From Chthoniobacterales bacterium (lineage in GTDB: Bacteria > Verrucomicrobiota > Verrucomicrobiia > Chthoniobacterales > Chthoniobacteraceae), in assembly GCA_038207335.1 (NCBI GenBank), contig JBBQZX010000021.1:40909-104908 (forward strand): a stretch of DNA of 64,000 nucleotides, read 5' to 3'. Below, piece after piece: positions 4,842 through 57,823 of this stretch. Within the stretch, counting starts at the first letter, position 1. Each line of letters opens with the position of its first letter. Under the pieces are notes generated by a model. The model did not search any database. It had not been told where the DNA came from and was given only the letters and a program-made list of their open reading frames with translations. The translations under genes and the position numbers were made by a program.

Positions 4842-6314
4842 ATGATCCTGAGCACACACGAAATGCGAGAGCTGGAGGAGCGAGCTTTTGCCGATGGCGT
4901 GAGCGCGGAGTTACTGATGGATCAAGCGGGAGTGCGTATCGCGGAGGCGGTGCGGCAGTTTTTCCCAGAGCCGGGGCGGTGCGTCGCGCACTTTGGCAAA
5001 GGCCACAACGGCGGCGATGCGCTCGTTGCCGCGGGGCATCTAGCTGCGGCGGGCTGGCGAGTCGAATTAGCACCGGCGTTTCCCATCGGCGACTGGAGCG
5101 CGCTGACTCGGAAGAGATTCGCGACGCTCGAAGATCGCGGCTCGGCGGCTGGCGGAGGCGCTCTCGTGGTGCTCGATGGGCTGCTCGGAATCGGAGCGAG
5201 TGGCGCGCTGCGAGAGCCGATCGCGGGTGCGGCGCGAGAGATCGCGCGGCTGCGGGCGGAAGAGGGCGCGCACGTTTTTGCGATCGATCTGCCGAGCGGC
5301 CTCGACGGCGATTCCGGCGATGCTGCGGACGGCGTGGTGCAGGCGGATTTCACGCTCGCGATCGGCTTTGCGAAACGCGGGCTCGTCGCCGATGGCGCGG
5401 CGCATTTCACCGGCCGCATCGCCGTACTGCCGCTGCGAGAACTCACCGCGCGCGCCAACTTTTCCGAGGAAACCGCAACCGTCGCGACGCCTCACACGCT
5501 CGCCTCGCTGCTACCGCGGCGCAGCTTCGACATGCACAAGGGCGACTGCGGACGCGTGGCTATCGTTGCGGGTTCGCGTGGCCTCGTCGGCGCGGCGTCG
5601 ATGTGCGCGGAAGCCTGTGTCCATGCGGGCGCGGGGCTCGTCACACTCCTCGTGACGGAAGACATTTACCCCATCGCCGCGGCGCTCGCTTCGCCCGAAG
5701 TCATGGTGAAGCCCGTGGCCTCTTATCTGGAATTGCTCGACCTGAAATGCGACGTCGTCGCGTTCGGTCCCGGCCTCGGGCACGCGCGGAGCGACGAACT
5801 TCTCGAGCTCATCCGGCGTGTCGAAGCGCCCATGGTCATCGACGCGGACGGCCTCAACGCTCTCGCCGCAAGCATCCAGACTCTCGATGCCTGCGCCGGC
5901 CCGCGACTGCTCACGCCGCACCCCGGCGAGATGGCGCGGCTTGCTCCTGCTTCGCGCAAAATGCTGCGCTGCAAGACGGTCGAGACATTCACTCAGAAGT
6001 ACGCGCACACCCTGCTGCTGAAAGGCGCGCGCACGCTCATCGGCGAGCGCGGACGCCCGCTCAGCTACAACTCCACCGGCTCGCCCGGCATGGCCACCGG
6101 CGGCATGGGCGACCTCCTCACCGGCGTCTGCGCCGCCCTCGCCGCGCAGCATCTCGCGCTCTTCGATGCCGCGCGCCTCGGAGCATGGCTCTGCGGGCGC
6201 GCCGCCGAACTCGCCATTTTCTCCGACTCCGAGTCTGAGGAATCGCTCAGCGCCACAAACCTCCTTCCGCACCTCGGCGCGGCATTTCGCGAACTGCGCG
6301 CGCGCTCATACTGA
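4842..6314 (+). CDS. nnr: Bifunctional NAD(P)H-hydrate epimerase/dehydratase (YjeF)
   Basis: GKGHNGGDA, DGLLGIG, AIDLPSG, HKGDCG, GPGLG, VIDADGL, TPHPGEMARL, MATGGMGD. Confidence 0.95.
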   Translation: MILSTHEMRELEERAFADGVSAELLMDQAGVRIAEAVRQFFPEPGRCVAHFGKGHNGGDALVAAGHLAAAGWRVELAPAFPIGDWSALTRKRFATLEDRGSAAGGGALVVLDGLLGIGASGALREPIAGAAREIARLRAEEGAHVFAIDLPSGLDGDSGDAADGVVQADFTLAIGFAKRGLVADGAAHFTGRIAVLPLRELTARANFSEETATVATPHTLASLLPRRSFDMHKGDCGRVAIVAGSRGLVGAASMCAEACVHAGAGLVTLLVTEDIYPIAAALASPEVMVKPVASYLELLDLKCDVVAFGPGLGHARSDELLELIRRVEAPMVIDADGLNALAASIQTLDACAGPRLLTPHPGEMARLAPASRKMLRCKTVETFTQKYAHTLLLKGARTLIGERGRPLSYNSTGSPGMATGGMGDLLTGVCAALAAQHLALFDAARLGAWLCGRAAELAIFSDSESEESLSATNLLPHLGAAFRELRARSY

Positions 6315-6432
6315 TCTCCTTAATCTCCTGCCCCTCGCGCGAAGCAACCGCGCGCCCGGCGATCCGCGAATCTGCATTGCCCTGACGAGCCCGCTTTGAG
6401 CGATGTGCAGGGAAATTCAAACAAACCAAAAT

Positions 6433-6888
6433 ATGAAATCACAACTCCACAAAATCACCGGCGCGATCCTCGCAGCCACCGCCCTCGCTTGCGTTTCCTC
6501 GTTTGCGCAGTCGGCGGTCACAACCACCAGCACCACCACCACGGCAGGCACCATTAGCGACTTCAGCCCGGACACCATCGTCGTCCGCACCGAGTCCAGC
6601 CCGGAGCCCATCCGCTACAGCTACTCGAAGACCACGACGTACGTCGATGACTCCGGAACTCCCGTGTCGCTCGAACTCGTGAAAAGCGGTCTGCCCGTCA
6701 CGGTCAGCTACATCAAGGAAGGCGACCACATGGTGGCCAACCGCGTCATCGTCCACAAGAAGACGACCACGACCACGACGGATGGCGGCACCGCAGTAGT
6801 CGAGAAAAAGCGCACTACCATTACCGACGACGCGCCTGCAGTCATCGAGAAAAAGTCCACCACGACGACCACCTCGGAGACCAAGTAA
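6433..6888 (+). CDS. Secreted Thr-rich hypothetical protein
   Basis: Signal peptide ending SFAQ, poly-Thr tracts, small beta-rich core; followed by a terminator. Confidence 0.75.
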   Translation: MKSQLHKITGAILAATALACVSSFAQSAVTTTSTTTTAGTISDFSPDTIVVRTESSPEPIRYSYSKTTTYVDDSGTPVSLELVKSGLPVTVSYIKEGDHMVANRVIVHKKTTTTTTDGGTAVVEKKRTTITDDAPAVIEKKSTTTTTSETK

Positions 6889-6916
6889 ATCTAGGCCCGT
6901 TTCAACCCCCAACCCT

Positions 6917-6951
6917 AAAAACCCGCGAAGTTTTTACTTCGCGGGTTTTTT
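6917..6951 (+). terminator. Intrinsic terminator (possibly bidirectional)
   Basis: aaaaacccgcgaagt-tttt-acttcgcgggttttt perfect stem with T-run, 29 bp after a stop codon. Confidence 0.9.
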
Positions 6952-7049
6952 GTGAAACGAAACAACAAATGCAAAAAAATTCCCGCCAGCAGAAACGCTC
7001 ACCGCGCCCTCCGCGCGCGAACCAAACACAGCAACCCACACAAGCCGAC

Positions 7050-7304
7050 ATGGACACACAGAACTACCCGCAAAACTTCGATGAATTCCGTCACCGCACG
7101 GAGGACTACGTGCGCGATGAACCGACCAAAGCCGTTGGCCTCGCCGTGCTCGCCGGAATCGTCCTCACCATCTTCCCGGTTTTCAGCATCATCACCGGCA
7201 TCCTTCGCCTCATCCTCACGCTCGCCCGTCCAGCGCTTCTCATCCTCGGCGGCATGAAGCTCTACGAGGAGATCGACAAACGCTGCTGCAAAAACGGCGA
7301 ATAA
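7050..7304 (+). CDS. Small membrane protein, ElaB/YqjD/DUF883-like
   Basis: EDYVRDEPTKAVGLAVLAGIVL motif. Confidence 0.65.
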   Translation: MDTQNYPQNFDEFRHRTEDYVRDEPTKAVGLAVLAGIVLTIFPVFSIITGILRLILTLARPALLILGGMKLYEEIDKRCCKNGE

Positions 7305-7322
7305 TCCACTCCCCTCCCAGCC

Positions 7323-7667
7323 ATGAAAACTCACAACTACCCGGTGCATTCCGACCCGCCCGCGCGCGGCTTCGCGGAGCAGGCTGATCTCGCACTTCGC
7401 GAAAACCCCATTCCGGCCATCATCACCGCCGTCGCCCTCGGCTTCGGAATCGGGCTGCTCGTCCGGTTTCTCCAACCCGAGCCTCACCATCTCCGCGACT
7501 ACGTGGATGAAAGTCGCGGCTATTTCCGTTCTGCGATCAAGCCGTGGAAAAAGAAAGTCCACCGCGCTTATGACACCTCGTCGAAAGCCATCCACAATGC
7601 CGCCGACGACCTCCGCGACATCGATCTCGACCCCGTCGCGAAATGGTGGAAGCGCCTCTGGGCGTGA
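7323..7667 (+). CDS. Small membrane protein, DUF883-like motif
   Basis: LRENPIPAIITAVALGFGIGLLV motif. Confidence 0.65.
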   Translation: MKTHNYPVHSDPPARGFAEQADLALRENPIPAIITAVALGFGIGLLVRFLQPEPHHLRDYVDESRGYFRSAIKPWKKKVHRAYDTSSKAIHNAADDLRDIDLDPVAKWWKRLWA

Positions 7668-7703
7668 GCGAGAGTCAGGTCAGTCTCGGATTCTAGCCGC
7701 GCG

Positions 7704-8430: not shown

Positions 8431-9651
8431 GTGCGTTTCCCCTCGCTCGTCCTCCTCACGCTGCTTTGCGTCGTTGTGCTCGGTCGCGCGGAGGACTGGC
8501 CGCAATTTCGCGGCCCCACCGGTCTCGGCTACACGACGGAAAAGGCGCTCCCTACGACTTGGAACGCAGCCACCGGCGAGCACATCGCGTGGCGCGCGGC
8601 GTTGCCGAAAAGCGACGGCGCTTACTCGTCGCCCATTATCGTCGGCGACCGCGTCATCGTCACCTGCGCCTCGAATCAGCCCGTGACGCATCGCGTCCTT
8701 TGCTTTGCGAAAGCGGACGGCCGCGCGCTGTGGGACACGGCCATCGAGCCCGGGCCGTGGATTCTCACTGACCACCGCGGCGGCTACGGTGCGCCGACTC
8801 CGTGCAGCGACGGCAAGCAAATCTACGCCGTCTTTGGCTCCGCCGTCATCGCCGCGCTCAACCTCGATGGCCATCTCGTCTGGCGCCAACCCATCGAGCC
8901 GCACGCCTTCGACGTCGCCCTCGGTAGCAGTCCGATTCTTTTCAGAGACACCGTCATCCTCGACTGCGACCAGACCGGCAAAACCTCCCACTTTCTCGCG
9001 CTCCAGACCCGCGACGGCGCCGTCCGCTGGAAAGCCGAACGCCCAGCGCAGAGCTTCGCCCACAGCACCCCCGTCATCGTCCAAATCGCCGGCAAACCCC
9101 AGATGCTCGTCAGCGCCTCCAACGCCCTCCAAGGCCTCGACCCCGCCGACGGCCACATCCTCTGGAGCTGCGCCGCGCAGGGCGACGCCGCCTCTCCGGC
9201 CTTCGCAGAAGGCCTCGTCTTCAGCGACAGCGGGCGCGGTGGCAAAGCCGTCTGTGTCGATCCCACCGGTAACGGCGACATCACCGCCACGCACCTCCGC
9301 TGGACCATCCCGCAAATCCCCGAGGGCCTCTCCTCCGCCATCATCGTCGGCGGTCGCGTGTGGCGCACGCACAGTCCCTCCATCCTGAAGTGCTTCGACC
9401 TCGCCACCGGCAAAATCGTCTTCGCCGAGCGCATCTCCGGCCTCTCCCCGTGGCCCAGCCCCATCGCCACCGCCAATGGTCTCCTCTACTTTGCCTGCGC
9501 CGGGAAGACCGTCGTGGTGAAAGTGGCTGCCCCTCTTGAAATCGTCGCCACCAACGACCTCGGCGAAGAAGACCGCGCCAGCGCCGCGGTCAGCGACGGC
9601 CACCTCTTCATCCGTGGTGACAAAACCCTCTTCTGCATCGGCCCCAAATAA
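8431..9651 (+). CDS. PQQ-like/BamB-like beta-propeller repeat protein (PVC-expanded family)
   Basis: Signal peptide then DWPQFRGP, YSSPII, APTPCSDG, ASAAVSDGHLFIRG; GTG start inferred. Confidence 0.9.
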   Translation: MRFPSLVLLTLLCVVVLGRAEDWPQFRGPTGLGYTTEKALPTTWNAATGEHIAWRAALPKSDGAYSSPIIVGDRVIVTCASNQPVTHRVLCFAKADGRALWDTAIEPGPWILTDHRGGYGAPTPCSDGKQIYAVFGSAVIAALNLDGHLVWRQPIEPHAFDVALGSSPILFRDTVILDCDQTGKTSHFLALQTRDGAVRWKAERPAQSFAHSTPVIVQIAGKPQMLVSASNALQGLDPADGHILWSCAAQGDAASPAFAEGLVFSDSGRGGKAVCVDPTGNGDITATHLRWTIPQIPEGLSSAIIVGGRVWRTHSPSILKCFDLATGKIVFAERISGLSPWPSPIATANGLLYFACAGKTVVVKVAAPLEIVATNDLGEEDRASAAVSDGHLFIRGDKTLFCIGPK

Positions 9652-10611
9652 ATGAAACTCCTCCCTCTCGCAGCACTCCTCCTCCTCGCCGTCGCCGCTT
9701 CCGCCGCCGACTGGGAAAACATCTCCGACGCCACCACCGCCCAAGTCAAACCCGGCTACGGTGGCCCCACCTCCGGAGTCGTCGCCGACCGCACCAATGG
9801 CGACCTCTTCATGGTCATCAGCGACCAGGGCCTCTGGCGCAGCACCGACCACGGCGCCACTTTCACCCGCTGCGACGGCGGCGCGATTGGTGGCCGATGC
9901 GAGACCGGTTGGGCGCTCCAAGCCGACACCGCCGGCAGCCGCCTCGCCTGCTTCATGATCTACGGCAGCAGCGGCATGAGCACCGACCGCGGCGCGACTT
10001 GGACGAAATTCAAAACCACCCACCTCGACTTCGGCGCCGTCGATTGGGCCGACACCGCGCATCGCCTCCTCGCCATCCGACACGAGAGCGGCGGCATGCT
10101 CACCACCAGCCCTGACGCCGGCACCACTTGGACCGACCTCGGCAAAGACTACACCGGTTGCGGCGTCCTCGATTCCCACACCTTCCTCGCCACCAAAACC
10201 GCCGAACCCGGCATCTTCCGCAGCACCGATGCCGGGGTCACGTGGACCCGTGTCTTCGAGCAAACCCCAGCTGCCCCCGTCCCCGTCCTCTTTGATAAAG
10301 TCGCCTACTGGCTTGCCGGCAAAACCCTCCTCGTCAGCCGCGACCTCGGTGCCACTTGGTCTGCGCTCCCAGGCGTGGTCGAGGCCAGTTACGGTCCCTA
10401 CTTCGCCGACGCCCAACACTTCACCGTCGTTGGACCCAAAGGCTTCCTCGAAACCAGCGACGCCGGCACCACTTGGACCCCCGCTGCTCCACTGCCGTCC
10501 GGCTTCAAAATCCAGCGCGTCGGCCCGAACTTCGCCTGGGATCCCCGCGCCGACCTCTTCTACGCCTCCGCCATGACCCGACCCACCTTCCGGCTCACTC
10601 GAGGAAAGTAG
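9652..10611 (+). CDS. Secreted BNR/Asp-box beta-propeller protein (sialidase/xyloglucanase-like fold)
   Basis: Repeated S-x-D-x-G-x-T-W/F boxes (STDHGATF, STDRGATW, SPDAGTTW, STDAGVTW, SRDLGATW, TSDAGTTW); abuts upstream stop. Confidence 0.85.
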   Translation: MKLLPLAALLLLAVAASAADWENISDATTAQVKPGYGGPTSGVVADRTNGDLFMVISDQGLWRSTDHGATFTRCDGGAIGGRCETGWALQADTAGSRLACFMIYGSSGMSTDRGATWTKFKTTHLDFGAVDWADTAHRLLAIRHESGGMLTTSPDAGTTWTDLGKDYTGCGVLDSHTFLATKTAEPGIFRSTDAGVTWTRVFEQTPAAPVPVLFDKVAYWLAGKTLLVSRDLGATWSALPGVVEASYGPYFADAQHFTVVGPKGFLETSDAGTTWTPAAPLPSGFKIQRVGPNFAWDPRADLFYASAMTRPTFRLTRGK

Positions 10612-10692
10612 CACCTCTCGGAAAAATCCATTTGCGCCGTGCGTCAGATTCGCATTGCAGCGTTGGGCTTCGTCCCCGTTCCCCTCCTATCT

Positions 10693-11850
10693 ATGAAACA
10701 TCGTCTTTACCTTGCATTCGCGGCCTTCCTCAGCGCGACGGGCGTCGCCGACCTCCGAGCGCAGACCCTCGCCGACCCGAGCTTCGAGTCGGTTCAGCAG
10801 GGGGGTGCAAATTTCTACTACCAGCCCACCGGCTTCCCATGGAGTTTCACCTCCACCTCCGGCGTCATCCAGCCCCCCAGCGCTTTTGCGGGTCCCACCA
10901 CCGGCTTTAATGGCACCCAATACGCCTTTCTCCAGACCAACACCGGCAGTCCTAGCTCCAACGGTGCCGGCGGCCTCATCTCACAGACTGTCAATTTCCC
11001 GAGCGCGGGCAACTACCGGCTCTCCCTAATAAACGCTTACCGGGGAACTCAATCCGCCGCCCGCTACGCCGTCCAGATCGACGGCGTCACCGTCACCTCC
11101 TCCGTGGGCGCCTTCAATAGCGCCTTCACCGCGAATCAGATCAACTTCGCCGCCCCTGCCGGTTCTCACACCTTCTCCCTCATCTCCACCGGGCCCACCG
11201 ACTCCACCACATTTGTGGACCAGCTCGCCCTCTCCGTCGCCAATGGCGGCTTCAGCATCGGCACCTTCACCGGCGACGCCGACTCCGGCGTCTCCACCTC
11301 GAAGACCTACACCCACGCCATCGATCTCGATGGCTCCGGTGGCAACGTCAATGGCGTCACCTTTTCCCCCGGAGGCACCGGCGCCCAAGCCACCTACACC
11401 CTCTCTGGAGCCGGAACGCCCAACGCCAGCCTCACCACCAACACTCTCACCGGCACGATGCACTCCATCGCCACCGACTTCTTCTACGGCGGCAATCCGG
11501 CCACCCTCACCCTCTCCGGCCTCACCGTCGGCAAACAATACCTCACCACCTTCTACGCCGCCGGCTTTGGCGCCGCCGGGGGCCGTCTCCAGACCGCCTC
11601 CGACAGTCTGGGCAACGTCATCTACTTCGATGAAGACGCCGCCGGCCAGAACAACGGCACCCTTTTGCGCGACGCCTTCACCGCCACCGCCAGCACCGTT
11701 ACCTTCACCTTCACACCGACTGTAGCCGGCAATACCTACCACTTCTACGGTTTCAGCAACGAAGTCGTCCCCGAGCCCGGCACCCTCGGCCTCCTCGCCT
11801 GCGCCGCCACCGGCCTTCTCGCCCGCCGTCGCCGCAGCGCTGCGCAGTAA
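10693..11850 (+). CDS. PEP-CTERM sorting domain protein
   Basis: Signal peptide; C-terminal VPEPGTLGLLACAATGLLARRRRS. Confidence 0.93.
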   Translation: MKHRLYLAFAAFLSATGVADLRAQTLADPSFESVQQGGANFYYQPTGFPWSFTSTSGVIQPPSAFAGPTTGFNGTQYAFLQTNTGSPSSNGAGGLISQTVNFPSAGNYRLSLINAYRGTQSAARYAVQIDGVTVTSSVGAFNSAFTANQINFAAPAGSHTFSLISTGPTDSTTFVDQLALSVANGGFSIGTFTGDADSGVSTSKTYTHAIDLDGSGGNVNGVTFSPGGTGAQATYTLSGAGTPNASLTTNTLTGTMHSIATDFFYGGNPATLTLSGLTVGKQYLTTFYAAGFGAAGGRLQTASDSLGNVIYFDEDAAGQNNGTLLRDAFTATASTVTFTFTPTVAGNTYHFYGFSNEVVPEPGTLGLLACAATGLLARRRRSAAQ

Positions 11851-11948
11851 TCACCGGCCAGTCCGCAGTGGGTCCGTTGCGCACAAAATTCTCTGCATCA
11901 CGTTTGCAAAAACCCCGAGTTTGCTTCAATGCGACCCTCTTTTTCGCC

Positions 11949-12377
11949 ATGAAAAGCACACACGCCCGCTGCCTCCCCTTCCTCTGCCTTTTCCCGCCGC
12001 CGTGCCTGCGTGGGCTGGCACGTTGAAACGCGGTCGTTACAGTGGAACCTGCGTCTTTACTCAGACCCTTGCCGAGAGCGGTATCGTCGTGAAAAAGACG
12101 TTCGCCGTCACCGGCCGCATCCGCGATAATTTCACCTGCATCTTTCTTGGCGTCCCCCTCGGGGTCGCCACCAATCGCGTCGATAGGCGACTTTTCAGTG
12201 GCACCATCAATGTCGGTCTCAGTAAATTTAGCGGCCTCAGAGGCACCGATAACGACGGCAATACATTCAGTTGTCAGAACCGGCGGCACCCTGCGGCTCG
12301 CCTGGACCTTCCATCACGGCCAGACGTTCGGCGATACGGTCAACCGTCGCGCATCTCACGGCGATAGGGGGCGCTAG
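11949..12377 (+). pseudogene. Frameshifted small secreted hypothetical protein
   Basis: ATG 11949 (MKSTHARCLPFLCLF) continues in another frame as PAAVPAWAGTLKRGRYSG..., with a probable second shift near 12270. Confidence 0.45.
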
Positions 12378-12383
12378 AGGCGG

Positions 12384-15465: not shown

Positions 15466-15678
15466 GCGAGTGAAACGTCCCGCGCCCCGGCCCCGGCCTT
15501 GCGGCGAATTCAGTGCCACGGCATTTCGATAGCGCCCAGAGGGAAGACCGCGAAATCGTTTCGTGCGTGAATTTTTTTGCTTTCACGGGTGTGGTGCGCT
15601 TCATTCCGCGCGCTTGCAAGAAAGGCGGCTTGTCAAGGCAGTGCTCGGTGCCCGCCGGTCGGTCTCAAGTTCCCTTGC

Positions 15679-19181: not shown

Positions 19182-19198
19182 GCCCGCCAGCCCTGCCC

Positions 19199-19637: not shown

Positions 19638-19685
19638 GGCAGGGGCGTCGGAAGCCCCAGCAGGAAGTGGAATCTCCAAAGACGG

Positions 19686-23325: not shown

Positions 23326-23341
23326 GGCGCGGGGGGCCGGG

Positions 23342-43636: not shown

Positions 43637-43660
43637 GTCACCATGCGCTCGATTTTACCG

Positions 43661-44455: not shown

Positions 44456-44554
44456 AGCGATCTAGCTGGTGAGAAGAGGGCGCGTGGATTGCCTCGCGCC
44501 AAAGTTTCTGAGTGCATGTGTCTCACGCACTCTCCCCGCTGCGACTCTCCAAAC

Positions 44555-45829: not shown

Positions 45830-45838
45830 ATTTCTACA

Positions 45839-46735: not shown

Positions 46736-46765
46736 AAGCCCGCGAAACCTTCACCCAGACCCACC

Positions 46766-48603: not shown

Positions 48604-48621
48604 ATCCCGAGCGCGCGCGGC

Positions 48622-49299
48622 CTACTTCGTCGTCGGGAAATTGAACGCCGGGGTCGGTGCTTCCTTGTAGTCGCCGGGGATCGTGAAGAGCGCGGGATCG
48701 ACGTTTTCCTCAGTCACCGTGACGAGCGTCGTCGTCACCTTTTGCCCGGCGATCGTGAGCTCGGTTTTCACTGGCATACCGGGGAAGTCGGACGGCTTCG
48801 GAGTCATCGAACGCGCGAGCTGGGCGAGTCCGGCGTTCTGGATTTTCTCCATCGCCGCGAGAATGTCGGGATACTTGGGGTAGCCCTTCGCGATCCAGTA
48901 GGTCGCGCTCACGCCCTCCGCGTCCCACTTGAAAATCTCGCAGTCGTAGGCTCCGACCTTCTCCTTCTTTCCGGTCGGCACGAGCATCGGCGCGGGGGCG
49001 GCGGCAGCGCCCGGGGCCTGTTTCTTTTGCATCTGCTCCATGAGGGCGCGCGTCCGGTCGGCCGGGATTTTCATGAAGGTCTTCTGCGAGTGCATGAGCG
49101 TGACCACGTCGCCGGTCGCGCCATCCGTGATCGTGCTCAGCGGCGGCGCGATGTCCGCGCGAGACTTGTCGCCCTTGATCTTCACCACCATCGTCCCCGT
49201 CTGCATGGCCCCCTCGACCTGCTGCGTGATGACGAAGTCCGCCCGCACGAAGCTCAGAAAGCCGAACAAGGTGACCGCGGCGAGGAAGCCAGTTTTCAT
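48622..49299 (-). CDS. DUF4412-like secreted protein
   Basis: Signal peptide; TGKKEKVGAYDC, YWIA, GMPVKT, LFTIPGDY. Confidence 0.8.
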   Translation of the reverse strand: MKTGFLAAVTLFGFLSFVRADFVITQQVEGAMQTGTMVVKIKGDKSRADIAPPLSTITDGATGDVVTLMHSQKTFMKIPADRTRALMEQMQKKQAPGAAAAPAPMLVPTGKKEKVGAYDCEIFKWDAEGVSATYWIAKGYPKYPDILAAMEKIQNAGLAQLARSMTPKPSDFPGMPVKTELTIAGQKVTTTLVTVTEENVDPALFTIPGDYKEAPTPAFNFPTTK

Positions 49300-49350
49300 A
49301 CGCAGGAACCTGTGCGAGACATCGCGGCAGCGAAAGCGGAAACCGGCCGA

Positions 49351-50331
49351 TCAGCGCGTCACCCGGGCTGGGACAGGAGCGGGGCCTACCTCCCTGTCGG
49401 GCCGGGCGTATTTCATCTGCACGAAAGGATTGTTGTTGCCCCACTTCGACCACGGACCTGTCGGTATGTCGCGGAACTCGACAAATCGCCACTCCGTCAC
49501 ATCGACGTCTGCGAGTCCGAGGAAATCGCGAACCGCTGGCGAGACGCTCAACCCCGCACCTTTGATCGCGTTTGCCTTCGGGCGCTCGGAGCCGAAGACA
49601 TATTGAAAGTGATCGGTGCGAGCCGGTCCGCAGTCGCTCCACTGCGCGTAGCAGCTTTTACCGTGTCCATTGCGGACCTCGACCCAGCGATCTTGACAGA
49701 CGCTCTCCCCCTCGCGCTCGAAGGTCTGGCTGAACCACGGGATCACCACCCGCGCCTCCGGTTTCGTCGTGCCGCCCGTCACGTCGTTGTATGGCAGCGC
49801 GATGTAAAACGGATTTTGCTGGGGTTGAAATTTGACCGAGATGGAGTTCCGCCGCGCGGTCGGGTCTGGATCATCGTAGCCTCCGAAATCCATCTCCCAA
49901 TTCGGATTCCACGCGCTCGCCTGACGCGCGGCCTTTCCTTTTCCGGGCAGCTTTTCGCCGATGGCGAAGACGTTCGTCACGATGGCCTTCCTCCACGGAT
50001 ACCGACCGGCCGACGGCGGACGTGCATCGATTGGACGGAGGACCGTAGGCTCCAGATGCAGCAAAGCCTCTTCGCGCAACTTCGCTGCGTTGCTGGCGAA
50101 ATCCTCGCTGCTGCGAAAAGGCGTAGTCTGTCGGTCGCGGCGCTGGTCGGACGCTGTTGAGGCAGGCGTCGATGTTTTGGGAAGATCGGCGCTTTTTGGA
50201 GTCGCGAGCTCACGCTTGGCTTCTTCGGCTCCCGGACGAGGAGCTTTTTGGCAACCAGCGAACGCCGCGAGCATTGCGCAAACCGCGGCGGCGACGGCCC
50301 TCTGTTTGCGGAAATGCTTCTTCATCTTCAC
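49351..50331 (-). CDS. Hypothetical lipoprotein
   Basis: Lipobox FAGC; conserved-looking core QNPFYIALPYND, CYAQWSDCGP, AGLSVSPAVRD. Confidence 0.8.
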   Translation of the reverse strand: MKMKKHFRKQRAVAAAVCAMLAAFAGCQKAPRPGAEEAKRELATPKSADLPKTSTPASTASDQRRDRQTTPFRSSEDFASNAAKLREEALLHLEPTVLRPIDARPPSAGRYPWRKAIVTNVFAIGEKLPGKGKAARQASAWNPNWEMDFGGYDDPDPTARRNSISVKFQPQQNPFYIALPYNDVTGGTTKPEARVVIPWFSQTFEREGESVCQDRWVEVRNGHGKSCYAQWSDCGPARTDHFQYVFGSERPKANAIKGAGLSVSPAVRDFLGLADVDVTEWRFVEFRDIPTGPWSKWGNNNPFVQMKYARPDREVGPAPVPARVTR

Positions 50332-50349
50332 GGCTTCCGCCGAGACGGT

Positions 50350-51495
50350 CTAGGCCACTTTCGCGTGGGTGTTGGCGAGGTCGCGGGCGGGGTCGATGTG
50401 CCAGCGGGTGGCGGCTTGGGCGAGGTCGGAGGTGACGGGCCAGCGGTCGGCGAGGGGGTCGCCGGTGTTGATGGGGTTGGCGCCTTTGAGGTCCATGCAG
50501 CCGGTGTTGTCTCCGATGCGGCGGAGCTCTTCCATCTCGTCGGCGGTGAAGGTGATCTCGGGGAGATTCGCGAGGTCGCTGATCTTGTCCTCGATCGCTT
50601 TTGCGCCGGGGCTGGACTCTTGGATCATGGTGGGGATGACGCTGCGGACGGCGGGGTGCGAGAGATTCCAGATGCAGGAGAGCTGGAGCGGCGAGAGGCC
50701 GTGGCGCTCGGCGATGGGGAGCATCCGGTCGAGCTTGGCGCTGCCGACATCGACCCAGCCGGCGGGGCGAAAGGTGCGGTGATCGTATTTGGGGAATTCG
50801 TGCCCGGGCTTCACGTCGCCGTGGAAGAGGCCGCCGTAATCGACGACGCGCGTGATGATCTTGATGTCGTGCTTTTCCGCCGCGGGCAGGCAGAGGGAGC
50901 CGGGCCAGGGCTCGAGTGGATTGAGGATGATCATGGACCAGTCGAGCAGCGCGCCGAAGCGCTCGAAGCTGAGGATGACATCGAGAGTGAAGCCATTGGC
51001 CGGCCCCGGCGCGATGCCGATTTGCTCGCAGAGCCCCTCCTCGCGCATCCGGTCCATCGCGGTCCAGACGGCGTCGCTGGTGAAGCCGGTGCTGTCGGGA
51101 TTGTGCAGCATGAGGCAGTCGAAGTGGTCGGTCTTGCAGCGCTCGAGCGACTTCTCGGTGGCCATGCGGATGTAGTCGAGAAAGTCGCGCGGCTGGCGGA
51201 GGCGGGAGTCGGTGAAGCGCGGGTAGCCTTTGGAGCCTTCGCGTTCGCCGTTGTAAAAGTCGTGGCCGATCATGCCGACGATGGCGTAGGTGTCGCGCGG
51301 GAGGCCGGCGAGGGCGCGGGCGAGCATTTCGTCGGCGGCGCCGTTGCCATAGACATCGGCGGTCATGAAGGTGCGAATGCCGGAGTCGTAGGCGTGGCGG
51401 ATGACGGCGAGGAAGCGCTCGTCGTCGAGCGGTTCGCCAAAGTGCATGAAGCGTCCGCCGCTCCAAGTGCCGTATGCAGTGCGTGTGAGGTCCAT
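50350..51495 (-). CDS. Aldo/keto reductase
   Basis: TADVYGNG, SLERCKTDHFDCLMLHNPD. Confidence 0.88.
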   Translation of the reverse strand: MDLTRTAYGTWSGGRFMHFGEPLDDERFLAVIRHAYDSGIRTFMTADVYGNGAADEMLARALAGLPRDTYAIVGMIGHDFYNGEREGSKGYPRFTDSRLRQPRDFLDYIRMATEKSLERCKTDHFDCLMLHNPDSTGFTSDAVWTAMDRMREEGLCEQIGIAPGPANGFTLDVILSFERFGALLDWSMIILNPLEPWPGSLCLPAAEKHDIKIITRVVDYGGLFHGDVKPGHEFPKYDHRTFRPAGWVDVGSAKLDRMLPIAERHGLSPLQLSCIWNLSHPAVRSVIPTMIQESSPGAKAIEDKISDLANLPEITFTADEMEELRRIGDNTGCMDLKGANPINTGDPLADRWPVTSDLAQAATRWHIDPARDLANTHAKVA

Positions 51496-51563
51496 AAAAA
51501 GAGGGCGGAATTTACGGGCGCGCGCGCCGCGAGGGAATGCGGATTTTACGAAATGCCGAGCGC

Positions 51564-53711
51564 CTATTGAGTGGGCGGTTGCTCGGGATTGGGCGGGAAC
51601 CAGCGGATCGCGATGGCGGCTCTTCCGAGTTCGGTGTTTGCGCAGCGGCTTTCGATCGCGTTGTAAAAGCGCTCCGCGGAGTCGTGGTAGCGATCTTTCA
51701 GCCAGCGGCCAGCCGTGTTCAAAACGATCGCCGTTTCTTCGCTGTTGTCGGGCATCAGCTTCGCGGCACGCCATGCGATGTCGGCGGCGATGAAGCGGTA
51801 ATGGAAGCGTTCGTTCGGCTCGACAGGAGTGGCTTTCAATCGCGCGCGCTCCGAAGTCGTGAGCGGGACGACGAGCGGACGCACGGTGATCCGCTTGGTG
51901 TATCCGTCTGGGACATTCACCCATTTATGCTCGGTCCATTTGCCCGCAAGTCGCTCGGTTCTGATATTAGCGACTTCATAATTCCCGTCCCAGATGAAGC
52001 CGTCCGGCTCCACTTCGGTGCCGAGCAATTCCATTCCATCGGAACGCGCAATTTGCGCTGCCGCCCACAGCGCAGCAGCCCGCTTGGAGCGTGGCAATTT
52101 CGCGTCCTGCCCGCGCTTCAGACCGGCGGTGTATTCGTCGAGTTTCAAGCGGAGCGGCGCGGGGAAAAAGGGCCGCGCCTCTGCAAAGCGCCCGAGCCTT
52201 GCAAGCCGCCGGGCAAGCAACCACCGAACTTTCAAGGTGCCTCGGATTTCTCCCGGCATGAAGAATTGCCCGGAGCCCGCGACGCAGCGCTCCAACCATT
52301 CCGCATGCGTCTCTTTCGGTTGATTAGAGCCCTCGCGGACTTCGTCGCGCGCGACTTTAGCGTCCTGCTCCGCGCTCCAGGGATAGGTTTTGCGGACGAT
52401 CGCGAGCAGTTCGCCAGTCGTCAGGACGCGCTCCGCGAGAAAGGCAGCGTCCTGCCAGACCCCGCCTTTCGCGAGCGTGAGAAAGGCCGCGGAAAATTCG
52501 TTTCGCGCGAGTTGCATCAGCCCGAGATCCGCCGTCGCGCTCTCGATTGGCATGGTTTCCCACGGTTCGGCGTCGCGCTGATCGAGTCCGTGAATCTGCG
52601 GAATTTGCGGAAGCGCTTTTGCCATCGCCGCCGTCGCATCAGCGAGTTTTCCGGCGCGAAAATCGAGCTTCGACTTGAGCCAAAGAGCGAGGCCGGAATT
52701 TGGGTCGGCGCGTTTCAGCCAGCGTTCGGCTTCGTCAAAATGGCCCGCCGTGTAAGCGGTCCAGCCGAGTCGCGCCGCGTCGCCGATGTTGGCTTGGTCC
52801 GAATTTTCCATCGCTGCCAGCCAGGCGGTTGACAAATCTCCGGGACCGTTCTCGCCTGCCTCACCGAGTGAAGATGTGACCATTCGCGAGAGGATGAATC
52901 GTGTGGCGACTGGCTCCAAAACAGCGTTTGCAGCGATTTTTTGAAGATCGGTGTCTGTGGTGACCAGTTGTTTTGCGACGCTCAAGAGCGAGTCCACGGC
53001 GGTGCGGTCGCCGGTGGCGAGTTGCTCGAGGTAGAGGCGGGCGGCGGGCTCGAGGGCGTTGTCGTTGAGTTCGGCGCGGGCCTCCCAGCCGAGGCTCGCG
53101 GCGGCGAGGCCGAGGGTGTCGGCAAAGCCCGCCTTTGCCTGCTCACGGACGGTGGTAAACCACTTTTTGGCGTCGGGACTTTTTTCCGCCAGGTCCAGCT
53201 TTCCGAGCATGAATGCCGCCCAGGTCGAGCGGTAGTGGCGCTGCGCTGCGGGGAGGGCGAGGAGTTCGGTCCACGCGGTGCGGGCGGCGGGCTTGTCGCC
53301 GCTGTGGAAGGCGCGTGCGCCGCGGTGGTAGATCGCGAATTCACTCGGGAATTCCTCCCCAGCGGCGGGTCCCCCGATGGCTTGCCTCGCCGCGAGATGC
53401 TGTGCTGTGGCTGCTTCCGCGTCGGGTGGGGCGATTGCGCGGGCCGCGAGCGCGTCGGCAAAATCGGCGGTATCGGCGTCCGCGCTTTCTTGCGATGGTG
53501 CGTCGTCTTTGCTCTGGGCAGGCTTCGCTTTGAATGGCCCGGCGAACGATTTCGCGAGGTCTTTCATCTCGATTTCAAAGTAGAACTCCGGTGCTGCGAG
53601 TACGGCCGAGCCGCCATTTTCCAAGTAACGATTTGGCAGCCACGGGCCACATGCGTGCGCGGTGGCGAGGAGCGCGAAAAGCGCGCCGCTAGTGAGGGTG
53701 AGTCGTGACAT
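51564..53711 (-). CDS. Secreted TPR-like alpha-helical protein (partner of DUF3142)
   Basis: Signal peptide ending AHA-CGP; helical repeats; C-terminal RFHYRFIAADIAWRAA...LNTAGRW; overlaps the upstream gene. Confidence 0.8.
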   Translation of the reverse strand: MSRLTLTSGALFALLATAHACGPWLPNRYLENGGSAVLAAPEFYFEIEMKDLAKSFAGPFKAKPAQSKDDAPSQESADADTADFADALAARAIAPPDAEAATAQHLAARQAIGGPAAGEEFPSEFAIYHRGARAFHSGDKPAARTAWTELLALPAAQRHYRSTWAAFMLGKLDLAEKSPDAKKWFTTVREQAKAGFADTLGLAAASLGWEARAELNDNALEPAARLYLEQLATGDRTAVDSLLSVAKQLVTTDTDLQKIAANAVLEPVATRFILSRMVTSSLGEAGENGPGDLSTAWLAAMENSDQANIGDAARLGWTAYTAGHFDEAERWLKRADPNSGLALWLKSKLDFRAGKLADATAAMAKALPQIPQIHGLDQRDAEPWETMPIESATADLGLMQLARNEFSAAFLTLAKGGVWQDAAFLAERVLTTGELLAIVRKTYPWSAEQDAKVARDEVREGSNQPKETHAEWLERCVAGSGQFFMPGEIRGTLKVRWLLARRLARLGRFAEARPFFPAPLRLKLDEYTAGLKRGQDAKLPRSKRAAALWAAAQIARSDGMELLGTEVEPDGFIWDGNYEVANIRTERLAGKWTEHKWVNVPDGYTKRITVRPLVVPLTTSERARLKATPVEPNERFHYRFIAADIAWRAAKLMPDNSEETAIVLNTAGRWLKDRYHDSAERFYNAIESRCANTELGRAAIAIRWFPPNPEQPPTQ

Positions 53712-54945
53712 GAATCCGCTGCGGAGGATCGAGCCGCAGCCAACCGATAGCGCGATTTTCACCCGGCGACAAACGCGCGGAATCGAGTTCGGCTGAGAGA
53801 CGGAAAGTGGCGCTATTTTCACCCGGATCGAGCGTGAAGCCGGGGAGCGCGTCGCTCGAAACGAGGCGCGCGCTTTTCCACTCGGCGACGACTGTGGGCG
53901 GGATGGGCTCGTCGAGTTCGCCGTCGTTGATGAGCGCGATGTCGGTGGGATTTGCGTCGGTGGCCTCGACGCGGAGGGCGCTGTGCGGGGTGCGTCCGGC
54001 GATGATCGCGGCGAGGGTGGGCCAGCGCCAATTCATCGTGTCGGAGCGGAGCGGGAGGCGATACCAGAGGATGCCGGTGAGGTTTGCGGGTCGCTCGCGC
54101 GTCCATGCCTGCACGAGCACCGAGAGTTGGCGCGCGTCGGCGCGGATGATGCGCGCAGGGGTGTCGCGCGGCCACGCGAGGCCGGGTCCCTCGGCGGAGA
54201 GGCCGGCGAGATTTCCGGCGCGGTCGAATGCGGCGCGGACGCTGTAGGTCGGCAGGGCGACGCGAAATGGGACGCCGATTTTTGCGGCGCACCGCATCCA
54301 TGCGTCGGCTTTTGCGGGGTCGCAGAGGGTGGGCGTGGGGTCTGCGACGCGGGGCTTTTCGACGGAGTGGACTTGCAAGACGAAGCTGCCGGCTTCGCGC
54401 GCGACGGTGGAAAAATCGCGCTGGGCGAGCCAAATCGGCAGCGCGGTGATGCTGATGGGGACAGGCGCGGCGGCAAGTTTGATGGCGGCGACCCAGGTGC
54501 CGTATCCGGCGAGGCGCGAGTCGGCACAGTCGAAGTCGATTTGCAGTTCGCTCGCTGGGATGCCAGCGGCGGCGGCTTCGGCCAGGATGTCGCGGGCGAG
54601 TTTGCAGAGCGTGTCGATGGCTGGGCCGGAGCTTTGAAATGGGCCGGAAAACGCGCCGATGCGGAGGGCGAGGCCGAGCGGGCGGCCGGTGGATTTGAGA
54701 GCGGCGAAATCGATTTTTGGGCGGACGATTTCGGGGGCGCTGGCTTTCCACAAGACCTCGGCGGCGAGTGGGACGAATCCGGCGGCTAGGGGCCGGGCGC
54801 GCGTGAGAGCATCGGTGACGGCGGGCGTCCAGATGCGCTGCCAGACGTAGATTTCGTGCGGGAGCGGGCCGGAGGCTTGTGGCGCCTGGCTGCACGAGGA
54901 GGCGAGCGCGGCGGTGGCAAGGAGCGTGAGGAGCCGGCGAGTCAC
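53689..54945 (-). CDS. DUF3142 domain lipoprotein
   Basis: YVWQRIW, LQIDFDC, SITALPIW, FVLQVH, FRVALPTY, ILWYRLP...NW. Confidence 0.85.
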   Translation of the reverse strand: MTRRLLTLLATAALASSCSQAPQASGPLPHEIYVWQRIWTPAVTDALTRARPLAAGFVPLAAEVLWKASAPEIVRPKIDFAALKSTGRPLGLALRIGAFSGPFQSSGPAIDTLCKLARDILAEAAAAGIPASELQIDFDCADSRLAGYGTWVAAIKLAAAPVPISITALPIWLAQRDFSTVAREAGSFVLQVHSVEKPRVADPTPTLCDPAKADAWMRCAAKIGVPFRVALPTYSVRAAFDRAGNLAGLSAEGPGLAWPRDTPARIIRADARQLSVLVQAWTRERPANLTGILWYRLPLRSDTMNWRWPTLAAIIAGRTPHSALRVEATDANPTDIALINDGELDEPIPPTVVAEWKSARLVSSDALPGFTLDPGENSATFRLSAELDSARLSPGENRAIGWLRLDPPQRIHVTTHPH

Positions 54946-55622
54946 ATGAGCGTGGCGAGGACGGCGTTCAGGTCGGAGAGGTCTTCGAAGATGAGGTCAG
55001 GGGTGTGCTCGGCGAGTTGGGCGCGAGTGAAGTTGCCTGTGGCGATGGCGACGGCCTTTGCGCCGATTTCTCGGGCGCAGGTGATGTCGTGCGGGGTGTC
55101 GCCGAGGACGTAGATGCGGTCGGGGGGGAAGTCGATGCCGTGGCGCTCGTGGGCGCGGCGGCGGGCGACGGCGCCGAGTTGGTTGCGGTCGTGATGATCG
55201 TCGGCGAATGCGCCGAAGTCGAAGTAGTGCCAGACGCCGTAGTGGGTCAGCTTGAGTTCGGCGCCGCGCGCGAGGTTGCCGGTGAGGAGGCCGAGGAGGA
55301 TGTCGGGACGCGGGGCGAGGGCGTCGAGGAGGGGGATAATTCCGGGAAGGAGACGGCCTTGGAGTTGTGGTAGGAGGAGGGCGAGGTGGTGGAGGTATCC
55401 GTCGAAGAATGCGGTGAGATTTTCGGGCGTGGCGTCGATGTGGTGGGCATTGAACATCGCGCGGGCGATGCCGGAGTCGGTGCGCCCGGCGATTTCGATT
55501 TGCTTGAGGTCGTCGTCGATGCCGAAGCGGTCGCGGAAGCCGAGGCGCAGCGCCTTTTCACCGGCGCCGCCGCTTGTGATGAGGGTGCCGTCGATGTCGA
55601 AGAGGATGAGTTTTTTTTGCAT
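54942..55622 (-). CDS. HAD family hydrolase
   Basis: LFDIDGTL, LLTGN, GDTPHD. Confidence 0.93.
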   Translation of the reverse strand: MQKKLILFDIDGTLITSGGAGEKALRLGFRDRFGIDDDLKQIEIAGRTDSGIARAMFNAHHIDATPENLTAFFDGYLHHLALLLPQLQGRLLPGIIPLLDALAPRPDILLGLLTGNLARGAELKLTHYGVWHYFDFGAFADDHHDRNQLGAVARRRAHERHGIDFPPDRIYVLGDTPHDITCAREIGAKAVAIATGNFTRAQLAEHTPDLIFEDLSDLNAVLATLM

Positions 55623-55640
55623 GGGATGTGAAAATGGAAA

Positions 55641-55668
55641 CGGCCTCCAGATTGAGGCTGGAGGCCGG
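55641..55668. terminator. GC-rich hairpin between HAD and the coiled-coil genes
   Basis: cggcctccag-attgagg-ctggaggccg. Confidence 0.55.
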
Positions 55669-55732
55669 TTCGTGAATGGTTGTCTCGGTGTTTGTTAGGA
55701 TCGAGGACGAGGACGATTTCGAAGCTCGCGAC

Positions 55733-56134
55733 TTACTCTTTTTTTTCGGCCTTCTTGTCTTCGGTCGGCTTCGATTCCGCTGGCGGGGTTTGGCGCTGGA
55801 TGCCCCACTTCTCGACGATTTTTTTGGCGTCGGCGTCGGTTTTTGCGAGTTCGACGACGTCGGTGAGGAGGGAGGTGTATTGCGCCTGGACGGCACCCGT
55901 TTGTTTTTCGAGGTCGCCGCGTTTTGCGACGAGTTCGTCCGTTTGTTTTTTGACGTCAGCGAGGTTGACGAGCTGTTTGTCGATGTTGCCGAGCTGCCAG
56001 TTGAGGGTCTTGGTGCCGCGCTTGATTGCGCCGATTTGCGCGCCGAGGAAGATGGAGGCGGCGAGGGCGAGGAGGGTGATTGGAAGGTGAATGCCGAGGG
56101 AGGAGGGAGCTTCGGGTTCGAGTTCGGGTTCCAT
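55733..56134 (-). CDS. Single-TM coiled-coil hypothetical protein
   Basis: TM then heptad-rich region; ends LLTDVVELAKTDADAKKIVEKWGI. Confidence 0.8.
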   Translation of the reverse strand: MEPELEPEAPSSLGIHLPITLLALAASIFLGAQIGAIKRGTKTLNWQLGNIDKQLVNLADVKKQTDELVAKRGDLEKQTGAVQAQYTSLLTDVVELAKTDADAKKIVEKWGIQRQTPPAESKPTEDKKAEKKE

Positions 56135-56147
56135 GAGTTTTAAGGAA

Positions 56148-56516
56148 TTAGGGGTTTGCGGGGGCGGGGGTTTTGGCGGCTTCCTCGGCTGCTTTTTCGT
56201 TCACGGTGACGCCGTATTTCGCGAGGAGTTTTTTGATGTCTTCGTTCTTGCTCTGGACGGCGAGGCCGCCGAGGTCGCGGAGGACGGCTGGCCCGATTTC
56301 CTGGGCGAGTTTGGTGCCTTGGTTGATGCGCTCGGTCTGGAGTTGGAGCTGTTGTTGGGCGATTTGAGCGGTCTGTTGCTGGGTCTGGTATTCGTCCTGT
56401 TTTTTCTGCATTTCAGCCTGGAGATTCTGGCTGGCGGTGCCGGCGAAGAAGAGCCAGATGCTCAGGGTGAGGCAGAGGCTGGCCGCTGCGATGGAGATGA
56501 TGCTGGGAAGTTTCAT
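56148..56516 (-). CDS. Single-TM Gln-rich coiled-coil hypothetical protein
   Basis: TM then Q-rich coil; ends VLRDLGGLAVQSKNEDIKKLLAKYGV. Confidence 0.8.
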   Translation of the reverse strand: MKLPSIISIAAASLCLTLSIWLFFAGTASQNLQAEMQKKQDEYQTQQQTAQIAQQQLQLQTERINQGTKLAQEIGPAVLRDLGGLAVQSKNEDIKKLLAKYGVTVNEKAAEEAAKTPAPANP

Positions 56517-56680
56517 GGGGTCGGGGTTTTTCGTGCAGAGAGGGCGGAGGGTCAAGTGCCGCGGTTAAATTTTGGCGGTGATTTTAGCCTTGAGGCGATT
56601 GGCGGAAACGTGGATGCACATTGAAATCGGATGGCGGAGTGTGGCTGCCGCAGCTGGGTGCTCGGAGAAGGCAGCGAGCG

Positions 56681-57823
56681 TTATTTTTCTACAAAAGGAG
56701 CGCAGGACTCGCGCTCGACGAGGCGGACGGGGAAGATTTCTTTTTTAGGGATGTAGGAGATGCCTTCTCGGACGAGGCGATCGACTTCGCGGACGGCGTT
56801 TTCGGCAAGTTCTTCGGCTGGGATGTGGACTGTGGTTAGGGCGGGGGCTGTGAAGTGGGCAGGGGAATCGTCGCCGCAGCCGACGATGCTGAGTTCGCCA
56901 GGGATTTTGCAGCCGGCGGCGTGGGCGGCGGCGATGAGGCCGACTGCTGCCGCGTCGGACATGCAGAAGACGGCGGTGGGGGCGGGTTGGCGCTCGCGGA
57001 GGGCGGCGAATGCTGCGACGCCGGACTGGAATGTGAGGTCGCCGTAGATGACGTGCTGGGCCTCCATGGAGAGGTCGAATTGCTCGAAGGCGAGGCGGAC
57101 GCCGTGGTTCATCTCGATGGTCTGAGGCTCGGTGGCGCCGAAGGGGCCGGAGAGGATTCCGATGCGCCGGTGACCGAGGTGGAGGAGGTGTTCGACGCCG
57201 AGGTGGGAGGCGAGGCGGTAGTCGGGGATGAGGCTGAGGACGCCGGGGAGTGGGACGTCGTAGCCGAGGGAGACGAGGGGCCATCCGCGGCGGATGAGGA
57301 CTTGGATGAGGGAGGCATTGGGGGCGCCGAAGAGGATGAATTTCGACGCGACTCCGGTGCGGACGGCGTGGGGGAGGAGCTCGGGGTCGCCGGAGTAGTC
57401 GGCGGTCTCGTCGTAGCAGCCGACGGTGAGGCTGCGGCGGTGGTCGCCGGAGGTGTCCATGGTGGCGCCGGCGATGCGGGCGACGAGGGGGTCGGCGAGG
57501 CCGGCTTCGCGCTTGCTGGTGACGAGGAGGCAGAATTCGCCGAGTTCGGGATACATGCGGACGACGGCGCGGAGGTCGTTCGGGACGTATCCCATCTCGC
57601 GGCAGACGCGGAAGACGCGCTCGCGGGTTTTTTCGCTGACGCGGATGCCATAGTCGCGGTCGTTGAGGAGGGAGGAGATGGCTCCCTGGGAGACATTCGC
57701 AGCCTTGGCGATTTGGGCCATGGTGATGGTCTTCTGCATCTCGCCGCTGCGTCGGGGGGATTTATCATCACCGCCCGCCGGGAGGTCGCTGGCGGACGAC
57801 GATCCCTCGTTGGGCAAATTCAT
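56681..57823 (-). CDS. LacI family transcriptional regulator
   Basis: ITMAQIAKAANVSQGAISSLLN HTH, LGHRRIG, FCMSDAAA, PALTTVH; start may be 57739. Confidence 0.92.
   Translation of the reverse strand: MNLPNEGSSSASDLPAGGDDKSPRRSGEMQKTITMAQIAKAANVSQGAISSLLNDRDYGIRVSEKTRERVFRVCREMGYVPNDLRAVVRMYPELGEFCLLVTSKREAGLADPLVARIAGATMDTSGDHRRSLTVGCYDETADYSGDPELLPHAVRTGVASKFILFGAPNASLIQVLIRRGWPLVSLGYDVPLPGVLSLIPDYRLASHLGVEHLLHLGHRRIGILSGPFGATEPQTIEMNHGVRLAFEQFDLSMEAQHVIYGDLTFQSGVAAFAALRERQPAPTAVFCMSDAAAVGLIAAAHAAGCKIPGELSIVGCGDDSPAHFTAPALTTVHIPAEELAENAVREVDRLVREGISYIPKKEIFPVRLVERESCAPFVEK

Follow-up and report, generated by a model that had tools for sequence, protein, structure and literature searches.

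We analysed a 64,000-nucleotide stretch of DNA (hereafter, the window; C21:40909-104908) from the genome of an uncultured sediment bacterium of the Verrucomicrobiota, and found that the G/C skew of its silent positions has the form of a sawtooth. At each of about 200 junctions in this genome, the silent positions of the preceding 3 kb or so are rich in C and those of the following 3 kb or so are rich in G, regardless of the direction of the genes. The genome comprises 5.17 Mb in 53 contigs, and our own codon-model caller gave a set of 3784 genes (89% coding). The best matches to the thrS gene of the window, at 86-87%, are Chthoniobacter/Spartobacteria records. As the measure of the skew we used theta, the extent to which fourfold sites locally lean toward G or toward C once codon family and the next base have been corrected for. 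The step at a junction is the theta on its right minus the theta on its left, with 100 sites taken on each side, and a junction with a step >1.6 was regarded as strong, that is, as an anchor. There were 210 such junctions genome-wide.

A preliminary description of this DNA had reported C-rich and G-rich tracts alternating on the + strand. Its base counts were exact (33 C and 8 G at 19261-19320; 29 G and 12 C at 37201-37260). The tracts that it named are visible in the raw skew and are far stronger at fourfold sites, where the skew was -0.88 at 11.5 kb, -0.90 at 18.5 kb, +0.88 at 38.0 kb and +0.96 at 56.5 kb. These extremes, -0.90 to +0.96 in the window, occur in genes of either strand. The tract given as 53-57.8 kb is G-rich, up to +0.96; its part from 55 to 57.7 kb rises away from the junction and shows no decay.

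The drift of synonymous codons within a gene was also as described. In the long open reading frame (ORF) at 15858-19181, the ratio GCG/GCC was 23/1 over the 200 codons at its start and 1/25 over the 200 at its end, while GTG/GTC went from 21/3 to 2/3 and ACG/ACC from 7/3 to 1/22. The nnr gene drifts from G to C, and the gene at 36943 drifts from a G-rich start, by the amounts shown in Table 1. The start assigned to the long ORF was wrong: the ATG at 15679 belongs to a different frame. It opens a signal-peptide-like frame that stops at 15874-15876. The apparent frameshift, close to the 5' end of the long ORF, is also found in a unitig of the sequencing run X1.

The switches are not explained by assembly joins. 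Unitigs of run X1, which is possibly from the source sample, span 15049-23702, 33001-47215 and 47246-53000 without differences; they cover five switch zones, and those at 4.7, 11.9 and 54 kb lie outside them. The relative G005, of which we sampled 979 kb out of about 4.4 Mb (mean amino-acid identity 82%, 509 orthologues), has the same sawtooth.

The features of the window are listed in Table 1. At the first junction, the segments 3-3531 and 4839-7668 map onto different contigs of G005. The segment 27467-33170 carries two ammonium-transporter genes around a citrate-type transporter, the first being followed by a P-II gene. The start of a 16S rRNA gene at 63565-64000, where the contig ends, is the only Rfam match. 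No sigma-70-like promoter was found in the part of the window from 11 to 23 kb.

Table 1. Genes, tracts and switch junctions of the window, with fourfold skew and fitted junction amplitudes
Position	Strand	Feature	Fourfold skew	Amplitudes and remarks
2506-3477		Trp/Tyr-tRNA synthetase gene (Pfam PF00579), in C-rich + strand tract left of the first switch	-0.37, -0.34	
3478-4841		Switch junction, synteny break versus G005		1.67 right, 1.35 left
4842-6314	+	nnr gene (YjeF_N + Carb_kinase), G-rich start to C	+0.58 to -0.52	
8431-11850		C-rich tract, three + strand genes	to -0.88	
11851-12383		Switch junction, convergent genes		1.24/1.25
15466-15857		Switch junction, divergent genes		1.57/1.06; within one unitig
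15858-19181	+	Long ORF, LapA-type domain (PF20579), full G-to-C gradient	+0.62 to -0.90	
19182-21936		Double switch zone, two junctions around genes without Pfam match		1.17/2.10, 1.87/1.72
21937-25543		G-rich + strand tract, two - strand genes including thrS	mostly +0.45 to +0.77, dip +0.21	
29000-36319		C-rich tract crossing + and - strand genes	-0.25 to -0.69	
36320-36942		Strongest switch junction in the window, divergent genes		3.67/2.02; step 4.07; inside one 14-kb unitig
36943-42381	+	1812-amino-acid PATR-repeat gene (PF12951), G-rich start, neutral by about 40.5 kb	+0.88 to -0.22	
42382-46500		One-sided switch (42382-42466) and G-rich tract	up to +0.60	1.67/0
49981-51495		Switch junction (tandem - strand genes) and G-rich tract	+0.65 to +0.87	1.22/0.88
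53763-59962		Switch junction (53763-54941), then long G-rich tract with its peak at 56.5-57.7 kb	up to +0.96	2.15/0 plus two small

The sawtooth across the genome

The skew at fourfold sites persisted genome-wide, the standard deviation of theta being 0.85 as compared to 0.24 after shuffling. The steps were clearly one-directional. Steps of at least 2 numbered 157 from C to G against 33 from G to C, and those of at least 2.5 numbered 81 against 1. Five of the 157 upward steps lay deep inside genes, versus 19 of the 33 downward ones. Sharp switches go from C to G and are found at gene junctions, and the return to C is slow, as had been proposed for the window. The average gene drifts from G to C by -0.24 per kb.

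By orientation, the 210 strong junctions comprised 62 ++, 62 +-, 49 -- and 37 -+, with a median spacing of 13.6 kb. We tested a tract model by the held-out variance on 5 contigs. The model of one-sided tracts, each G-rich outward from a junction, explained 82%, as compared to 64% for two-sided symmetric tracts, 60% for C-outward tracts and 58-68% for tracts from the middle of genes; the best decay length among the 1.5, 3 and 6 kb tried was 3 kb. The pattern is built of tracts, each of which begins at a junction and is rich in G on the strand that runs 5'-to-3' outward. The amplitudes on the two sides of a junction are correlated (rho 0.34), and 115 junctions were two-sided versus 60 expected.

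The tracts do not follow the genes. Profiles of tracts entering a gene from its 5' end and from its 3' end match (203 tracts each): the values were 1.48 and 1.57 at the junction, and 0.75 and 0.84 at 1.5-2 kb. The state outlasts the next junction in 67-93% of cases in all four orientations. Across short divergent junctions the state of the DNA strand continues, with a coding-strand correlation of -0.55 (n=111), and in long same-strand runs the 5' and 3' ends are uncorrelated (0.03, n=222). Intergenic DNA within the domains has the same sign and is weaker (-0.14 to +0.21), and codon positions 1 and 2 are slightly shifted in the same direction. Among 102 contig ends, 27 were G-rich outward versus 6 of the opposite sign.

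Two simple causes were rejected. Amino-acid composition or gene strand cannot be the cause, since the effect is seen within codon families at fourfold sites and on both strands. Inversions that reshuffle a strong replichore skew would predict as many C-to-G as G-to-C steps, and genes without internal drift.

Anchors and relatives

The sequence motif that had been looked for at the sharp switches did not emerge, whether between genes, inside genes or at pinpointed switches. Intergenic k-mers and dyads, directional k-mers and in-gene 4-8-mers gave no general anchor motif, and the pinpointed switches (18 of the 56 two-sided anchors were sharp enough) had none. Sixteen chosen words included no general anchor, the Chi and KOPS words gave no step, and Rfam offered nothing beyond the 16S rRNA start.

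In contrast to motifs, the kind of junction mattered. Steps increase with gap length and with repeats in the gap: among gaps of 500-1500 bp, strong steps were found in 77% of the 13 with >10 repeat hits versus 20% of the 181 with none. The tie between hairpin strength and step at a given gap length was weak. Nine repeat families were profiled, the attC and REP labels being based on consensus features. Strong steps accompanied 14 of 21 scorable attC-like sites (42 found) and 10 of 12 copies of a GTAG-type REP-like repeat. Three small families were strongly linked to steps (6/10, 3/4 and 4/5), and four others less so (12/33, 8/43, 7/18 and 3/13). For tRNA genes the count was 14/37. The 42 attC-like sites lie on C1, C3, C4, C14, C17, C28 and other contigs, many of them arrayed at contig ends, and one array adjoins an integrase at C3:278593-279171.

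Comparison with G005 gave a similar result. In G005, strong steps were found at 7 of 309 conserved junctions versus 57 of 396 variable ones, and, among convergent junctions, at 0 of 20 conserved versus 18 of 87 variable. At orthologous junctions the step was larger in the genome with more inserted DNA (rho 0.22, n=385). Gene ends at conserved junctions showed no effect (0.02-0.03), while core genes facing a variable junction showed 0.17-0.25. Accessory genes without any homologue had no outward bias (-0.08), and core genes facing them had 0.25. These results support the view that what serves as the anchor is not a sequence motif but variable junctions as a class, among them attC-like sites, REP-like repeats, tRNA genes and synteny breaks. 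Causation could also be reversed, in that some property of the site both sets the skew and attracts insertions.

The skew state belongs to the position and not to the gene. Among 461 orthologue pairs with G005, theta correlated with r = 0.54 when the genes were syntenic on both sides (n=244) and with 0.00 when they were syntenic on neither (n=48); 10 of 92 strongly skewed genes were reversed in G005. The drift per kb inside genes was -0.238 in G005 and -0.240 in our genome. Taken together, the one-way steps, the junction model, the passage of the state through junctions, the synteny of orthologues and the tract profiles support the local, site-anchored, strand-asymmetric process suggested at the outset.

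We sampled 15 further relatives, 38-200 kb each. Four showed a clear drift of the same sign (G019 -0.27, G008 -0.18, G012 -0.14, G006 -0.10), G017 drifted oppositely (+0.23), and ten showed nothing beyond two standard errors. In 195 kb of Escherichia coli the drift was +0.15 +/- 0.05, with no excess of upward steps. In G017, which belongs to the same family, a 10-kb block (G017:C3, L282-L283) has theta near -1.8 and positive drift inside genes, a different skew pattern. In G004 a whole 159-kb contig (G004:C2, L094-L098, L268-L270) is G-rich on one strand, with plateaus and troughs of 20-40 kb and no sign switch at dnaA. Negative drift was also seen in the 20-kb loci L079, L055 and L062 (Latescibacterota, Prosthecobacter and Verrucomicrobiota), which are single noisy samples. 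Several thrS loci drifted negatively and were left uncounted, such 20-kb samples being noisy and some genomes possibly duplicates. A metagenome scan for close strains gave no relative above 58% identity.

Spectrum, fixation and candidate causes

The shift per unit theta was 1.15 for G/C, 0.54 for both G/A and T/C, 0.51 for twofold T/C and 0.40 for twofold G/A. For T/A it was 0.005 +/- 0.008; that is, G goes up, C goes down, and A and T stay flat. A background term on the scale of 7-40 kb adds 0.28 to T/A, unlike the local sawtooth. In the relatives G004 and G007, T/A moved at 0.5 and 0.3 of G/C (in G004, 1.09 versus 2.06). Apart from a somewhat high weight of GG/CC, the force is close to additive in G minus C, and a YC preference is absent (TC 0.255 versus CA 0.251). 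The slopes rank like mismatch stability, for which we took the nearest-neighbour table of Biopython: 1.14 for G.G versus C.C, 0.40-0.54 for G.T versus A.C, about 0.55 for G.A versus T.C, and 0.01 for T.T versus A.A.

Substitutions between our genome and G005 were fitted at 48,545 aligned fourfold sites of 394 genes in which both genomes are in a similar state. A symmetric fixation bias was better by 107 log-units than forward-only extra mutation and by 52 than reverse-only suppression, while pure loss from C fitted 27 log-units worse and pure misinsertion 6.6 worse. The best input/exit weight was 0.66, and 12 bootstrap values of the free parameter ranged from -0.24 to 0.07. The fit is close to saturation and assumes a reversible, stationary model, which makes it good, non-final evidence and tells to that extent against the explanation favoured below. 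The divergence of skewed genes from G005 was not raised. Under this model, the divergence appears to fit a symmetric fixation bias, and added mutation is disfavoured. The preliminary description had left the choice among mutation, repair and selection; mutation is now the disfavoured option, and biased repair or conversion, or selection, is kept.

Among the genes for replication, repair and competence, comEC, dprA, recA, mutS and mutL are present. The cause is not a loss of mutS/mutL, nor of dnaA, RNase H or uracil-DNA glycosylase, since the genome has all of them, dnaA and RNase H being intact. The mutM/fpg gene was not found in our genome or in 8 of 10 same-genus genomes, and the match in G004 has stops; the gene is also missing from relatives without the sawtooth. 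With E. coli queries, dut and spoT were not found. A second DnaE-family polymerase lies in a 1052-amino-acid frame at C4:175622, a uracil-DNA glycosylase domain lies in a 531-amino-acid frame at C4:24313, and the genome has three Y1_Tnp-family matches. Two rho paralogues of 448 and 662 amino acids (L080:1258-2604 and L081:628-2616) were found, the second with a long low-complexity N-terminus, and two or more rho matches occur in most of 41 genomes of the order. The words GTCGAC, CAGCTG and GTAC are avoided genome-wide, at 0.08, 0.13 and 0.36 of the expected number; such strong avoidance suggests restriction systems.

We tentatively favour strand-polar biased gene conversion, acting where recombination tracts meet a boundary of heterology, an explanation which we place somewhat short of an even chance. 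About 200 junctions, enriched in inserted or rearranged DNA, would each begin a tract of about 3 kb in which the outward 5'-to-3' strand prefers G and avoids C. Recombination tracts that abut non-homology would form heteroduplex in which strand polarity is fixed, and a mismatch with a G would be retained or repaired in another way than one with a C. In one version the outward strand would invade, and stable G-mismatches would be accepted more often. In the other, the strand with its 3' end toward the junction would invade, and MutS/MutL would remove G-mismatches. MutS/MutL corrects G-mismatches, whereas C.C escapes. Both versions give the observed sign and the other two combinations give the opposite one, meaning that the sign is fitted and not predicted. 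To the geometry, spectrum, position dependence, link to variable junctions and lack of excess divergence that we observed, this explanation would add that strains recombine at the flanks, that the polarity of the invading strand is fixed, and that mismatch handling supplies the bias and its sign. Conversion bias seems to be the simplest explanation because the fixation bias ignores the direction of transcription, decays over a recombination length, starts at heterology boundaries and ranks with mismatch stability. The genes that such conversion would draw on (comEC, dprA, recA, mutS and mutL) are in the genome. Pneumococcal transformation tracts are exponential with a mean of 2.3 kb (PMC3375284), donor-strand-biased repair is established (PMC12606429), and hotspot flanks have 50% more recombination events (PMC5635113).

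Several points weigh against conversion. No recombination was observed: the sole DNA run with the region is clonal over 33-53 kb, its reads showing no variants at 95% likeness, and differences at 80% likeness come from other organisms. Raised flank recombination was significant in only 9 of 146 species (PMC11879095), and mismatch repair, when saturated, was without effect (PMC3375284). Competence genes are found also in relatives without the sawtooth. The match to mismatch stability across classes is equally expected from additive selection on G minus C, and within classes the context effects fit mismatch stability in 1 of 8 classes only (T/A, p = 0.016). Only 38 of 210 anchors fall within the named repeat families, as compared to 30 of 520 background junctions; a strong switch is found at only about 1 in 5 variable junctions, and both genomes have strong steps at a few short junctions that are conserved. 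Once gap length is controlled, the effect of being variable is small (0.15 +/- 0.06), and core and accessory sides, when paired, do not differ (p = 0.65, n=144). In addition, the tract at 55-57.7 kb of the window departs from the modelled decay.

Selection at the RNA level is the main rival, because it also yields a fixation bias, and the fit suits it as well as conversion. Transcripts heading to a variable junction would be C-rich and G-poor, and Rho would stop read-through into foreign DNA. An excess of C over G is a descriptor of Rho (PMC13323073), both rho paralogues are at hand, and entry by the 3' end at convergent junctions is the most frequent strong class (31% versus 16-19%). However, genomes across the order carry two copies of rho, including ones that lack the sawtooth, and no conserved convergent end (0/20) is strong. 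Translated sense strands, including thrS, are as strongly affected as antisense strands, untranslated DNA beside the stop codon is weakly C-rich (0.12), and the YC preference is lacking. At long gaps the effect is not exclusive with intrinsic terminators (0.72 versus 0.69), shorter gaps leaning slightly toward Rho. We regard this explanation as unlikely. Repair synthesis primed at breaks or nicks seems to us quite unlikely. Hairpin or mobile-element sites would be cut often and one strand resynthesised outward, for example by the second DnaE, with both forward and reverse rates changing and G favoured on the new strand. The enrichment of anchors in hairpin-type mobile sites, the second polymerase, the Y1_Tnp-family matches, the missing mutM and the best weight, which lies between the symmetric and misinsertion-type models, agree with it. 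In contrast, the fit rejects added mutation alone and pure misinsertion, divergence is not raised in skewed genes, and, for gaps of equal length, hairpin strength says little about the step.

Many small stochastic origins of replication at the junctions, like miniature eukaryotic N-domains with a local leading and lagging strand on each side, would account for shape and sign, for the correlated left and right amplitudes and for a weak whole-contig skew without a switch at dnaA. This is very unlikely, since the local T/A slope is near zero as compared to the large-scale 0.28 and the T/A shift in G004, one-sided tracts fit better than symmetric ones, a decay of 3 kb is very short for a replisome, and dnaA and RNase H are intact. 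Least credible, and in our view extremely improbable, is deamination that accompanies transcription and hits the non-template strand, with sense and antisense promoters lying in the junctions. It agrees with intergenic anchors and with the G-to-C drift of the average gene, but an asymmetry of transitions only predicts 0.15 for G/C and 0.37 for T/A, where 1.15 and 0.005 were observed. Moreover, the state crosses divergent junctions, the ribosomal-protein operon has no G-rich start, and gene ends at conserved junctions show no effect. The pattern itself is real, strong and genome-wide, and replication, transcription, amino-acid content and assembly fail to explain it.

It is possible, if somewhat doubtful, that, where gene-gain hotspots end, bacterial recombination has a strand polarity and a mismatch bias strong enough to reshape codon usage, and to shift amino-acid composition, over kilobases on each side. 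If so, the G/C sawtooth of one genome would be a map of long-lived insertion and recombination hotspots and of tract length, and would parallel, in prokaryotes, the strand asymmetry seen at meiotic hotspots. Biased gene conversion in bacteria is debated (PMC11879095), because G+C content confounds conversion with selection; strand-polar conversion would leave a signature directly testable in population data. In any case, the sawtooth distorts inference of codon usage, origins and horizontal transfer in these genomes, and it could mark hotspots from a single genome.

Comparison with known systems

Strand asymmetry in bacteria is usually taken as a mark of replication or transcription. The local force described here is at least comparably strong (fourfold skew near +/-0.9), differs in spectrum and tracks variable junctions. 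Instead of one sign per replichore there are 210 switches, none of them at dnaA. In eukaryotes, N-domain or factory-roof skews show a sharp jump and a slow return linked to replication. Our pattern resembles replication-associated GC skew, as summarised in PMC3315797 and PMC11879095, and N-domains in the sharp C-to-G jump, the slow return, the independence of gene strand and the strength at silent sites. It is unlike them in its scale of about 3 kb, its roughly 200 sites, its often one-sided tracts and its lack of a T/A component.

Opposite GC skews at the 5' and 3' ends of genes are described in unicellular fungi (McLean and Tirosh 2011, PMC3315797). These share with our pattern an intragenic gradient of G/C that is seen at fourfold sites and hardly touches A/T, but they are of opposite sign and tied to the gene, whereas ours crosses gene boundaries and is absent at conserved junctions. 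The Rho-driven purine bias of Bacilli (Dierksheide et al. 2026, PMC13323073) is likewise a force that reaches synonymous codon choice and in which C over G matters. That bias follows the sense strand everywhere and includes U/T, whereas here the sense strand is G- or C-rich according to the nearest anchor. Chi, KOPS and HIP1 polarity differs in that no short word is found at our switches.

GC-biased gene conversion and hotspots of horizontal gene transfer (PMC5635113, PMC11879095) share with the sawtooth a fixation bias without extra mutation and a location at the flanks of variable regions. The passages of these two papers that we searched report no skew of this kind, and our literature search, which lay outside most subscription journals and supplements, found no earlier report of the pattern in bacteria. 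GC-biased gene conversion is strand-symmetric and alters G+C content; here G and C are exchanged between the strands. The pattern has an N-domain-like shape and gene-conversion-like dynamics, and fails a defining test of each known family.

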